From IMG/VR virus record IMGVR_UViG_2877251553_000005: DNA of 52,483 nt; one strand, written 5' to 3'. The DNA comes from a virus (lineage: Duplodnaviria > Heunggongvirae > Uroviricota > Caudoviricetes). Position 1 is the first letter of the stretch. Every line of letters starts with the position of its first letter. Shown here piece after piece: positions 3,001 to 9,000 of the stretch. The position numbers were made by a program.

Positions 3001-6000
3001 GGTTGTTTGCGCATTGATGCGGAAATGCGCTTCCAGTCTTCGCGATCTTTGTCGATAACTTCATTTTTTGCCCAGCGATGGATGCTGCCGTCAATGTTTC
3101 CGGTATCAATATCGCCAGGCCAGAGAGCGTAGGCCAGTTCTTCATCCAGCGTTTTCCATGTCTGCTTGTATTCGCGACAAATGGCGGCAGTGACTGGGTT
3201 GATTTTTCCTGCTGAGTTTTCAGTGTTCTGTTGATTGACTCTGGCGCTGGCGAGATCAACAACAGACGTGTATTTTCCAGTCTCTTTGCGCTCTGCGTCC
3301 TGCCGTTTTTTCCAGTTACGTAATTCAGCCTGAATTTCGGGCCATTTGGCACCCGGATTACATTTGTGTTTAACCCATCCGATAGCGAACAGTTTGCGTT
3401 CCGGATACATAGCGTTAATTTCAGGCGTTTTCATCAGTGCTTCAACGATATGCCCGTCAAAGGTAGCAACGTCTTCCTGCAGTAATTCCTGCGCGTCAAT
3501 CGCCATATCAACGGTGATGTTTTCACATGTACCGAACTTAACCAGGACCGCGTTCTGTACTTCAAGGGACAGCTTGTCAAAATTGACGTTCATCGGATCG
3601 GATTCTGGTTCGACCGGAATAAAGGAAGCGGATTCCTCATCCCAGCGGTTTTCCTGCATATATTCAGCATCCCAGGAATCGAGGGCAGGGCGGGGTATAC
3701 CGGGTTTATCCTCGCAGACAAGAAATTTATAAGCGCAGTCCTGAGCAGCCGGATAATGTTCCAGGAATTGCCAGTGAAATTTTGCGCGGGCGCGACGTTC
3801 ATCACCGGCTTCAATGGCAGTGGCTACAGCGACGGCACCTTCTTCCTTTATTGCCTGTTCGTCCGGAATGGCGGCGCAAATAAAGACTTTACTCATTTTG
3901 TTTTAACCTCATTACAGATTTCAGGGTGAACGAATCCCTGCCATTGCTGGCATTTTTAATCCGTTGGTATGGCGTTAATATGGCTGGCGGGTTATCCAGC
4001 CGGTATTTCGTTATTCAGGTTCAGCGATACTTTTTTTAACGGGAGGCATTCACCGGGGATTTTTTGTTCGTCCCTTACCTGAATGCAGGATGACTTACTG
4101 TCATAAATTCCGGTAATCACATTTTGTGGCTCACCCGTTATAAGAAAAACGGTCATCACCAGTGCAAATGCTGAAGTCACTGCTGTTCTCCGATAATACC
4201 AAGTTCAAGAAGGGCAATTCTGGAAAGTATGGAATTATCATTGAGAAGATAAGGTTCATATTTTCTCATCTTAATGGCATCTTCCGTAAACTCCCGGTTA
4301 CTGAGCAGAACACCAATATCAAAACAACCGGTAATGACTCCAACTTATTGATAGTGTTTTATGTTCAGATAATGCCCGATGACTTTGTCATGCAGCTCCA
4401 CCGATTTTGAGAACGACAGCGACTTCCGTCCCAGCCGTGCCAGGTGCTGCCTCAGATTCAGGTTATGCCGCTCAATTCGCTGCGTATATCGCTTGCTGAT
4501 TACGTGCAGCTTTCCCTTCAGGCGGGATTCATACAGTGGCCAGCCATCCGTCATCCATATCACCACGTCAAAGGGTGACAGCAAGCTCATAAGACGCCCC
4601 AGCGTCGCCATAGTGCGTTCACCGAATACGTGCGCAACAACCGTCTTCCGGAGCCTGTCATACGCGTAAAACAGCCAGCGCTGGCGCGATTTAGCCCCGA
4701 CGTATCCCCACTGTTCGTCCATTTCCGCGCAGACGATGACGTCACTGCCCGGCTGTATACGCGAGGTTACCGACTGCGGCCTGAGTTTTTTAAGTGACGT
4801 AAAATCGTGTTGAGGCTAACGCCCATAATGCGTGCAGTTGCCCGGCATCCAACGCCATTCATGGCCATATCAATAATTTTCTGGTGCGTACCGGGTTGAG
4901 AAGCGGTGTAAGTGAACTGCAGTTGCCATGTTTTACGGCAGTGAGAGCAGAGATAGCGCTGATGTCCGGCAGTGCTTTTGCCGTTACGCACCACCCCGTC
5001 AGTAGCTGAACAGGAGGGACAGCTGATAGAAACAGAAGCCACTGGAGCACCTCAAAAACACCATCATACACTAAATCAGTAAGTTGGCAGCATCACCAAA
5101 CAACCTTCAGACGTATTAACGTTTGGTAATAACGTTTCCATTATCGCGTCCTCAACAATGAATTTTGTGATGCGGTGCCTGGTGCCTCCAGGTGACGTTA
5201 ACCAGTTAACAATTAACGCCGGATACAGAGAATCCACCCATAACACTGTTTTTGGTTTTAACTGTTCTGCGTGCGCTCAGCCGCATTCACCACATCACAA
5301 AATTCACTTTAAAAAGGGCGGCAGAGCAGTCACGGAGTAAAACTGATACCGCCAAACGTCACCAGAAAATTGATAACAGAGGGCGTTGCAGCGGGGTTGT
5401 CACTTAAGCGTATGGTCAACCTGACAACCCGGTGTCCTCAGCGGGGAAGGAATAACCCCGCCATACTTACCGCCGCGCCATTTCGCGGATTGCCACAACC
5501 GGAAGCGCACGATCGAATTAAATTTAACGACGACCTATACAGAGAGACTAACTTCTCCGGGCGCTTTCGTGTTATGCCCTGACTTTTCAGGGATATATCC
5601 TTTTCAGTAAACTGTCAGTGCCGGATTCTTATCCGTGTCCGGCGCACGCACTCTACCTCACCTGTGAATAAATTAATGATTAATTGATATTTTGTTGTTT
5701 GATTCAACTTTCCCATCGGATGTGTGATGCTTTAAATCACAGGAATTAATACTGCTTGCTGTAAAATGATTTTCAAGGGTTCTATTCGAATCCCTTTCTT
5801 TTTCATTAACAAGCCAAACCCTTATCAATGATGTCCATTAGATCCAGGAAGTATTTTTCATGTAAATCCTGGTTATCAGAGAGCTGCTTCTCTTCGTACA
5901 GCCCGATAAAGGCTCGGCGTACGTTACCGGATATATTGTCGATGGTTTCTTTTTCTACGGTACTCAGGTCAAGAGTCGCCAGTTGAGAGCGAACCACATT

Positions 6001-9000
6001 CGATGCCATTTCCTGGAATGGTACTGGTAAATCTTTAAATTCCATCGTCAACCTCATCAGTCGGAGTTTCTTGCTAACCAGCGACGCGCGCCAGCTTCGG
6101 TTTTAAACGTTTTGCTTTTGGTATACGTCATGGCGGTGAATGTGCCGTCCTGGTTGGGGAGCACACCACATACCAGAGATTCGCTGTTGCCAAGATCGAT
6201 AGTATCCATGCTGACCTCATTACCCCTTAACGCCGGGTAGCGGAACTGTTTGCTGAGAACACCGTGCGGTGTCTTGATGGGTGGTAATTTAGTTTTCTCA
6301 TGAATGTTGGTCAAGCATTTTTAATGAGAAAACTCAACATTTAATGCAAAATAAAGCCAATACATTGAAATGTAAGGCTTTAAAATTTGTGAAGGGGGTT
6401 ACTGATGTTTGTTACGTTTGCGAGCTTCTAGTAGCTCGGTGAATAGGCGATTAAAATTCTCAACGCGGGCACGGAGTTCGCTGATTTGTGCTTGCTGCTC
6501 TGATTTTGGAAGTGCGCGATACAATCGCAACATCTCCAACTCATCTTCCGATAAGTCTAAGGCGCTGTTGAGTGCTACTGGTGGATCTGGTGTTTTATCC
6601 TCGTCACCAAACAGTATCCAAGTTGGTGAACATTGCAATACCTCAGCCAGGCGATGCAAATTTTGCCCGCGCGGGCTGTATGGTCGCTTTCCCATAGTGA
6701 AATTGATGAGCCAGATACGCCAGCGGCTTTGCTTAAATCGTTTTGACTTAAACCAACCTGTTTGCGTCTTTCTCTAATTCGTTGACCTAAAGTTTTCTCG
6801 TTCATATTTAGATATCTTAATAACCCTTGACTCGAGATTCCTTGAATGATTGCTATTGAGAAAACTCAACTTTGGAGGGGTGATGTTTAAATCAGACGTA
6901 ATTAATTTTTATGGGACGAAAGCCAAAGTAGCGAAAGCTGCTGGTGTTGATCCATCTGCTGTTTCTCAATGGGGGAACTGGTTCCTGAAGGTCGCGCGAT
7001 GCGCCTGCAAGAGGCATCCGGCGGGGAACTTCAGTACGACCCAAAGTTTATGACGAATATCGTAAGGCAAAGCGGGCGGGGCGGTTGAACAATGAAAATC
7101 ACCCTGAACAGGTTTGTGAGGCTCTGGATGCCTGGGTATGTCGACCAGGAATGACACAGGAGCAAGCGACGATATTAATCACGGAAGCATTCTGGGCTCT
7201 GAAAGAACGCCCGAACATCGATGTTCAACGCGTCACGTTTAATGATGGCGAGGTTGATCAACGGGCGCTGGGCGTTAACCGGGTGAAGATATTCGAACGC
7301 TGGAAAGCTATCGACACCAGGGATAAGCGGAAAAAATTCACGGCGCTGATTCCGGCAATTATGGAGGCTATCCGAATTAGTGATTTCAGGTTGTATCGTG
7401 AGATCAGTGATGGAAAAAGCATTACGTACATGATCGCCGGATTAAACAAAGAATATGGCGATGTGGTGGAGTCCGGGCTGCTTTTTGCGGATCCAGCTGT
7501 TGTGGAACGTGAGACTGACGAGCTTATAGAAAAAGCTATTGCTTTCAAGCATGCGTATCGTCAGCAATATCAATATTACTTTGCAGATAAACAAATGTCT
7601 GCCAGGGGTTTGTATGAGTATCGATGCACTACGATGGGCTAAAAAGGTGAAAACCGGCAGTTCATCCAGTAAGTCTGTATTGACCTGGCTTGCTGATATG
7701 TGCGGTGCCGATTTGTGTGCATACCCGTCTGTATCTGCACTGGCAGAAGTAACGGAACTAAACAAAAAGACTGTGCAGGACAGCTTACGACACCTGATGG
7801 AGATTGGGTTAATTGTTGATACCGGTGAGAGAAAAGGCAGAACAAAGCAAATTGTGGTGTACCGACTTATCGGTGTAGAAGAAAGTGTTGCCGAGCCTGA
7901 ATACACCCAAAAACGGGAGTCTTTAAAGGTGGGTAAAATTGGTGCTGTTAATAAAAACAGTACCGAAAATGGTTATGTTTCAGCACAAAACAGACCCAAA
8001 AACGGAACTCTTAGCTGCATGGAAAATAACCAAAGACACCCAAATTTTCCATCAAAGACACCCAAAAACGGATCACGGAACCCAAAGGAACCCAAAGATC
8101 TAAACCCCACACATAACGCACGCGAGAGTGCTCCGACCAGTGAGCAGGAAGTTTTGTCGTTACAGGCAGCACCCCTTGTATTCCTGGATGGCCTGAGCGA
8201 ACCCATCGGAAAATATCCGATGACCGATAGCTGGTATCCGTCACGGGATTTTCGACGACGGGCTGCGTTGTGGGGGATGGCTTTGCCGGAGACAGAATTT
8301 ACACCTGCTGAACTTGCCGCCTTCCGGGACTACTGGGCAGCGGAGGGGAAAGTGTTTACGCAGATTCAGTGGGAGCAGAAATTCGCCCGTCACGTAAATC
8401 ACGTCAGGGCGCAGGTTAAACCAGTCAGCAAGGGGTAAACCATGCAGCAGCACCAGGTGGCACCGCATCACGGGCAGTTCAGGAAATTCGGGCAGCACGT
8501 GAGCAGTGGGAACGTGAAAACGGATTTATCAGCGACGGAAACGGTCTGGAAGCTGTGGGAACTCATGGGGAGGTTTATTCGAACCGCTGGACCCAGAAGA
8601 ACGGGGCCGCACCTTCGAAGCTCTGGATTGCACAGATTGGCGCGATGACTGAGCAGCAAATCCGACAGGTCTGCCGCCAGTGCATGGACCGCTGCCGGGC
8701 GGGTGAAACATGGCCTCCGGACCTGGCTGAGTTTGTGGCGCTGATTTCAGAAAGCGGGGCCAATCCATTTGGCCTGACGGTGGATGCTGTGATGGAGGAG
8801 TACCGCCGCTGGCGTGATGAGTCCTGGCGATATGACGGAAGCGACAAATATCCGTGGCCTCAGCCTGTGCTGTACCACATCTGCCTCGAAATGCGTACCA
8901 GAGGGATTGAGCGCCAGATGACGCAGGGTGAGTTAAAACGACTTGCGGAACGGCAACTGACGAAATGGGCAAAGCATGTTGGTAACGGGATGAGTGTTCC

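Follow-up and report, generated by a model that had tools for sequence, protein, structure and literature searches.

The closest described counterparts of the regulatory system considered here are found in the Qin prophage of Escherichia coli K-12 and its relatives. The Qin repressor DicA has no RecA cleavage site and, together with DicC, forms a bistable switch (PMC10448788), while the small protein Rem derepresses the dicBp promoter 165-fold and is an antirepressor of DicA (Ragunathan et al. 2023, PMC10448788). In K-12, dicBp is not induced by mitomycin C, and neither recA nor rem is needed for its induction by urea, by heat or spontaneously (PMC10448788). The module is not confined to a remnant: phage mEp460_ev081 is a functional phage with dicB, dicF, dicAC and rem (PMC10448788), and an mEp460-like phage was isolated by plaquing in an infant-gut study (PMC6969025). 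Lambda-like prophages at ompW, in turn, excise after mitomycin C, remain unpackaged and were all judged defective (Nakamura et al. 2021, PMC8112680). Here we compare with these systems a 52,483-nucleotide stretch of viral DNA, IMG/VR record IMGVR_UViG_2877251553_000005, referred to below as the window, in which a Qin/Dic-type immunity module had been noted at 5098-7100 from the sequence alone.

Overall, we are confident that the window holds nearly all of a lambda-like prophage that is integrated next to ompW, of the type called PPompW, that it is controlled by a switch of the DicA/DicC kind and not by lambda CI, that this copy is degraded, and that its frameshifts are homopolymer errors of the assembly. 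Position 1 of the window is the stop codon of a lambda-type integrase gene, and ompW adjoins an identical integrase gene in the relatives L003 (strain NCTC86), L004 and L008-L013; at the other end, the window stops about 300 bp before the ompW fragment marking attR in the annotated GZ04-0086 prophage. Among lambda-like prophages of E. coli/Shigella at the ompW site, the element is an ordinary one, and its control module (DicA, DicC, DicF, dicB, Rem) has been described before. Among RefSeq complete E. coli genomes, 4747 of 5426 match part of the 2-kb stretch at 5098-7100, and 207 match at least 80%. As a discovery it has little value, since the non-cleavable DicA repressor, the Rem antirepressor, the dicBF operon and a functional phage with all of these are published, as are lambda-like ompW-site prophages with such an early region. 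The original prediction was right that the module is real; the integrity of dicB, the presence of ydfB and ydfC, the open reading frames (ORFs) as written and the completeness of morphogenesis did not hold.

The repressor belongs firmly to the DicA family. NCBIfam model NF007257 ('DicA') gives it 238.3 bits against a cutoff of 101 and spans residues 1-135 of 135, a score obtained on the intact allele of the relative L001 (L001:9305-9712), whose sole difference from the window is a G restored at ~6672. On the same intact protein, Pfam places HTH_3 at residues 10-64 and finds helix-turn-helix (HTH) families alone, over residues 6-71; Peptidase_S24 is absent from a Pfam scan of the 135-amino-acid (aa) form. 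An Ala-Gly dipeptide does occur, inside the HTH (KAAGVS), with no catalytic domain after it. The claim that this repressor lacks the LexA-like S24 domain is thereby borne out, and so is its divergent pairing with a DicC-like gene, which scores above the NF007282 cutoff and, on the opposite strand, has its start 78 bp from that of the repressor.

Two control regions flank the repressor gene. The leftward one contains a promoter-like site, TTGACC-17-TAAATT, at 6314..6286 on the minus strand, and both regions carry 14-bp palindromes of the form TTGAG-N4-CTCAA, the copy at 6856-6869 being perfect. Copies with no more than one mismatch occur in the 52 kb only in these two regions. When two mismatches are allowed, the window holds 21 copies, four of them in the control regions, against 23 expected, so that a whole-window excess is absent and the total is at chance level; what is meaningful is solely how they cluster next to the repressor gene. 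We infer that these palindromes are candidate operators of the repressor.

A general scheme for control of this prophage can then be proposed. The short HTH repressor, without autocleavage, would bind the TTGAG-N4-CTCAA palindromes, which overlap a leftward dicBp/PL-like and a rightward PR-like promoter. The rightward transcript would carry the DicC/Cro-like and YdaT/CII-like regulators and, beyond them, the replication genes and hok/sok, then rem, DUF968, rusA and Q, and the leftward transcript the ydfA-like gene, the 124-aa gene, DicF, dicB, the ydfD-like gene, exonuclease, xis and int. For this allele, induction would bypass RecA-stimulated repressor cleavage; the 83-aa Rem would act as antirepressor, and the DicA/DicC pair may also flip as a bistable switch. 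Both Rem action and bistability are proposed here because they have been shown for K-12 Qin, because Rem is 93% identical, and because the C-terminal half of the repressor is conserved.

At the same time, several of the genes in this scheme are broken in the sequence as written. The repressor ORF appears as pieces of 76 aa and 98 aa because a single G has dropped out of a GGGG run, which has its full length in three public assemblies that are otherwise the same. The DicC-like gene has three G/C-run deletions, the last within its overlap with ydaT; the YdaT and 124-aa ORFs are also frameshifted, as are at least ten late genes, the broken ones including terL, portal, the C protease, T, H, lom and tfa. 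In each clear case a run of G or C is one base short (for example at 5446, 5776, 5818, 6672, 6970, 7039, 7101, 29552, 31523, 32121, 37823, 39101, 47407 and 50809). In the aligned regions, the shortened G/C runs number 4 of 105 at length four, 6 of 17 at length five, 4 of 5 at length six and the single run of length seven, and none of 354 A/T runs is shortened. In a 740-bp comparison that takes in the repressor and DicC-like genes, the window differs from the three public assemblies only by four losses of 1 base in G/C runs, and one of the three shares just one of those four. The public assembly CP026807.1 has full-length capsid protein E, T and tape measure H beside the same allele of the tail protein V. 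The losses are confined to G and C, rise with run length and are missing from near-identical public assemblies; on these grounds we strongly infer that the written frameshifts arose in assembly and that the organism itself has intact immunity genes. The pattern is the signature of an unpolished assembly, which makes false pseudogenes across the prophage, and it holds a lesson for annotation: an immunity region that works can appear pseudogenised when the assembly is noisy.

The interruption of dicB is of another kind. An IS1 lies inside the gene, flanked by an 8-bp target duplication, AAACAACC, at 4322-4329 and 5098-5105; it splits dicB after codon ~15, and a complete 62-aa ORF is absent from the window. 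The insertion is real, because CP026807.1 and CP026823.1 carry it too; the IS1-dicB junction in this dicB allele was not found among RefSeq complete E. coli genomes. The intact dicB allele of the relative L001 passes both PF05358 and NF049927. DicF is untouched, with 53 of 53 positions identical to K-12 dicF, and lies 174 nt upstream of the dicB start. The leftward operon on the repressor strand was thus correctly recognized in its ydfA-like gene, DicF and ydfD-like gene; however, ydfB and ydfC are not present in it, the 124-aa phrog_6937 gene standing in their place, and dicB, listed as a member, is cut by the IS1, with only 44 nt of it falling within 5098-7100. The original prediction was silent on this element, which ends exactly where the noted stretch begins, and likewise on the written frameshifts.

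A second IS1, inserted independently, occupies nearly the same position in the K-12-like dicB of strain 2017.04.03CC (L018, NZ_AP025205.2, 3424-4293), where the immunity region beyond is deleted. IS1 near dicB codon 15 in two lineages may reflect a hot spot or selection against DicB. Since two different dicB alleles, one of the ompW lineage and one of the K-12-like Qin of 2017.04.03CC, carry IS1 at about the same codon, one could go further and propose that the 5' part of dicB is a recurrent IS1 target because losing DicB is favored by selection, with DicF and the switch retained, an idea we regard as speculative and quite improbable. If it were true, and selection instead of IS1 target preference were at work, DicB would be costly in some lineages, possibly Shigella-like ones.

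The late region reads, in its gene order, as complete. The terS-to-tfa block is collinear with, and 98% identical to, its counterpart in the annotated GZ04-0086 prophage, and the late region as a whole is ~91% identical in DNA to that of phage 21. The lesion in V is a 147-bp deletion between short repeats (GAGGRCGAKATG, window 36546-36556), with the new start reusing the U-V junction, and the same 201-aa V is called in CP026807.1 and many other public contigs. The two IS2 copies are 99.6% identical, and the second points the same way as late transcription; if the two recombined, Q, rem and hok would be lost. These three lesions of the late and nin-like regions (the two IS2 copies and the V deletion) are not sequencing noise. 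The description of a morphogenetically complete lambda-like set therefore stands for the gene order from terS to tfa, which is full, and fails for its contents, with V truncated and many late ORFs split as written. A complete gene order is not the same as an intact prophage, and here V is truncated and IS1 and IS2 are inserted.

Two opposite readings of this copy have to be weighed. In one, the frameshifts are real and the element is a heavily pseudogenised remnant with a dead repressor, the IS1 in dicB having been selected because it removed DicB toxicity once repression was lost. The broken repressor, DicC-like, YdaT and late ORFs would be read literally, and the second IS1 in the dicB of 2017.04.03CC would fit; yet the indels are all deletions, in G/C runs only, at a rate that rises with run length, the ORFs are intact in sister assemblies that share this IS1 and the substitutions, one of which shows a different subset of losses, and the intact DicF would stay toxic if the operon were derepressed, to judge from the K-12 data (PMC10448788). 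We give this reading almost no credence, and real pseudogenisation of the repressor in particular was rejected in view of the homopolymer statistics and the sister-assembly comparison. The other reading, that of the original prediction, is that the copy is an intact, inducible Qin-type phage able to make particles. The lambda morphogenesis genes are all there and in order, int, xis, replication genes, Q and lysis genes are present, the frameshifts are probably mostly artefacts, and close relatives with the same immunity form plaques. Against it stand a V without residues 2-50, seen again in an independent assembly, an IS2 between the esterase gene and the holin, the experimentally tested PPompW prophages, which were not packaged and were all judged defective (PMC8112680), and a similarity to Qin that is mosaic, with a different immunity. 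We therefore regard particle production by this copy as very unlikely. As a statement about the phage type, the notion of an intact Qin-type phage is correct in principle, as mEp460_ev081 and the Escherichia phage HannyBb attest, though not new; of this copy, with its IS1, two IS2 and truncated V, it is untrue.

How the degraded ompW prophage that we favor would be induced is a separate matter. Induction might still depend on the SOS response, in a Gifsy-like and indirect manner, through a LexA-controlled antirepressor (Rem or that of another prophage) and not through repressor cleavage. The excision and circularisation of PPompW genomes after mitomycin C (PMC8112680) leaves such a route possible, short repressors of the Gifsy type are governed by LexA-regulated antirepressors (cited in PMC10448788), and the relative NCTC86 has a Rha-family regulator beside dicB. 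On the other side, a pattern search for the LexA box CTG-N10-CAG found none between hokD and rem, and K-12 dicBp, unresponsive to mitomycin C, is induced spontaneously and by urea and heat independently of recA (PMC10448788). On balance we think SOS dependence rather unlikely. On its 5' side, rem has a hok terminator at 15276-15293 and a promoter-like site at 15316-15345, and this arrangement, with no LexA box upstream, fits a non-SOS trigger. Sites elsewhere were considered for control of rem and rejected: those of the form CTGT-N8-ACAG at 7945 and 40086 lie within coding regions far from rem, and a dinI-like site at 18857 lies within a methylase ORF. The LexA-box-like sequence TGCTGTTAATAAAAACAGTA occupies 7941-7964, inside a replication (DnaT-like) gene, and CTGTAAAAATATCCAG, which resembles the dinI box, occupies 18857-18872, 10 nt into the DNA methylase ORF.

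Some points weigh against the overall assignment itself. Rem was assayed solely against K-12 DicA, which is 54% identical to the repressor here; the operator assignment and the Rem sensitivity of this repressor allele are predictions, as is what the truncated V and the IS2 ahead of the holin do to particle production; and some homopolymers, judged from assemblies alone, may carry real slippage mutations.

Table 1. Features of the prophage in the window, in order of position (dicB coordinates exclude the IS1)
Feature	Coordinates	Strand	Evidence or remark
Lambda-type tyrosine integrase, 376 aa	1..1131	-	Pfam Arm-DNA-bind_1 and Phage_integrase; left end of prophage
Excisionase	1109..1357	-	Pfam Exc
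Exonuclease, 824 aa, intact form of the K-12 ydfE pseudogene	1422..3896	-	phrog_2082; 87% nucleotide identity to ydfE
DUF1482, YdfD-like small protein	3992..4180	-	PF07358, 56 bits; 48% identical to YdfD; last operon gene before the exonuclease
dicB, 3' part	4177..4329	-	Codons ~16-62; collinear with L001 7856-8008; translation contains CFDIGVLLSNREFTEDAIK
IS1, 768 bp, insA and insB, inside dicB	4330..5097	-	Pfam InsA, DDE_Tnp_IS1
dicB, 5' stub	5098..5141	-	First 44 nt of dicB (METLLPNVNTSEGC), then runs into the IS1 end
DicF small RNA	5316-5367	-	Rfam RF00039, 76.7 bits, threshold 48, E 3e-15
124-aa gene in place of ydfB/ydfC	5673-6045	-	phrog_6937; split here by two 1-base deletions
DUF1391, YdfA-like, first gene of leftward operon	6057-6209	-	PF07151, 99 bits; 90% identical to YdfA
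dicBp/PL-like promoter and candidate operators	6286..6337	-	Two 14-bp palindromes TTGAG-N4-CTCAA flanking or overlapping the promoter
DicA-family repressor, 135 aa	6399-6805	-	With the GGGG run at ~6672 restored; HTH only, without S24
PR/PRM-like control region	6807..6869	+	Palindromes at 6807-6820 and 6856-6869; TTGACT -35 at 6827-6832; predicted function
DicC/P22-Cro-like regulator, 75 aa intact	6883-7107	+	NF007282, 167.6 against cutoff 130; PF14549 P22_Cro, 64 bits
YdaT family, CII-like regulator	7092..7642	+	phrog_163; 89% identical to YdfX; matches the K-12 ydfX remnant
IS2, copy A	13194..14523	+	In nin-like region upstream of hok/sok; common to NCTC86
hok/sok type I toxin-antitoxin	14882..15207	+	sok 14882-15057 (Rfam RF01794, 117 bits); hokD 15052-15207
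rem, 83 aa, DicA antirepressor	15424..15675	+	93% identical to K-12; function from PMC10448788
DUF968/HNH (YdfU-like), RusA, 273-aa Q antiterminator	16021..18272	+	
IS2, copy B	23560..24890	+	Between SASA/NanS-p-like esterase gene and holin, within the late transcription unit
Packaging, head and tail genes	27635..51150	+	terS, terL, W, portal, C, D, E, FI, FII, Z, U, V, G/T, H, M, L, K, I, J, lom, stf, tfa
Major tail (tube) protein V without residues 2-50	36553..37158	+	201 aa against 250 aa

Beyond these features, the exact 824-aa exonuclease protein is found on many public contigs. Two tandem matches to the small RNA STnc100 (20371-20564 and 20840-21028; 140 and 133 bits) lie downstream of tRNA-Ile and tRNA-Arg genes and are followed by an IraM-like anti-adapter gene at 21054-21389 on the minus strand. 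Inside the tail-fibre assembly gene there is a match to the Rfam family 'IS009' (50909-51107, 224 bits), and a second tfa fragment at 52034-52248, near the right end, is 89% identical to 50985-51199; adjoining this fragment is an S-adenosylmethionine-dependent methyltransferase gene (51205-51873, minus strand).

Compared with K-12 Qin, the relation is real but mosaic and is not a match of whole prophages. The early region is related to Qin, and the identities first proposed hold, homologues of DicA, DicC, DicF, HokD, Rem, DUF968 and Q having been confirmed. Nucleotide matches of 80-95% cover ydfE, dicB, the DicF region, ydfA, the 3' half of dicC with ydfX, hokD-rem-ydfU, the lysis genes and stf/tfa, and homologues of ydfE, ydfD, dicB, DicF, ydfA, dicA, dicC, ydfX, hokD, rem, ydfU and Q stand in the same order. 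The two elements share a short non-cleavable repressor, a divergent DicC and a leftward operon running from ydfA through DicF, dicB and ydfD to the exonuclease, with hokD, rem, ydfU (DUF968) and Q downstream; HokD is 100% identical in amino acid sequence to that of K-12, Rem 93%, YdfA 90% and YdfU 85%. The downstream genes hokD, rem, DUF968, rusA and a long Q (273 aa) had been taken together as the Qin set, and all are present, although rusA lies outside K-12 Qin.

The repressor is only 46-54% identical to DicA, with a different HTH region and a similarity mostly in the C-terminal half, and blastn gives no Qin match across the repressor gene; the N-terminus of DicC differs as well, and Q and nohA are 40% and 52% identical. 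The Qin palindromes are of the type TGTTAG..CTAACA, against TTGAG-N4-CTCAA here. Since the repressor and the candidate operators differ, the element is, on sequence grounds, presumed heteroimmune to Qin, and it occupies another attachment site, Qin lying between ydfJ and rspB and this prophage at ompW; in the comparison with Qin, intQ has no match in the window. In addition, relBE, flxA, ydfB/C, the csp genes, gnsB and pinQ of Qin are absent from the window, and here there is a full late region and a dicB broken by IS1.

With the PPompW prophages of Shiga toxin-producing and enteropathogenic E. coli (for example LC567822), the element shares its integration site, its integrase type, an early region annotated with dicA, dicC, ydfC and dicB, and a lambda-like late region, and IS insertions and defects are typical of them too. 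Unlike these shared traits, sequence agreement in the early region is partial, with ~41-51% of it matching at ~94% identity. Type III secretion system effector loci and an internal attB for Shiga toxin phages belong to those prophages, and no search for them was made in the window. The closest ompW prophage, that of NCTC86 (L003 7393-8247, 10206-10667), has a different repressor of 153 aa, 24% identical, in which a C-terminal LP-SE motif is kept; rem is absent there, and a Rha-family regulator stands beside dicB. Comparison with NCTC86 suggests that repressor and antirepressor have been exchanged jointly.

Further afield, Gifsy-1/2 (GfoR/GftR with antirepressors of the GfoA type) and Rac (RacR-YdaS-YdaT) likewise have short HTH repressors without a cleavage domain and small antirepressors (PMC10448788), and a Cro-like and YdaT pair to the right, a likeness of architecture; the Gifsy antirepressors are LexA-controlled, whereas rem here has no LexA box upstream. 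The nearest relatives in immunity are two isolated, plaque-forming phages with GenBank records, mEp460_ev081 (LR597641) and HannyBb (PP925841). They differ in having dicB and the late genes intact, in their integrase and in their replication genes, and only ~35% of the left half of the window matches them at megablast level, the whole-prophage comparison with mEp460_ev081 resting on BLAST summaries; mEp460_ev081 also has csp, gnsB and pin genes like those of Qin, which are absent from the window. Rem is 92-93% identical across mEp460_ev081, HannyBb and K-12. In this context, since the repressor is 96% identical to those of both phages, the immunity of the ompW prophage is presumably theirs and not that of K-12 Qin, and with them it also shares the order int-xis-exo-DUF1482-dicB-DicF, then repressor-DicC-YdaT, and finally hok-rem-DUF968-rusA-Q.

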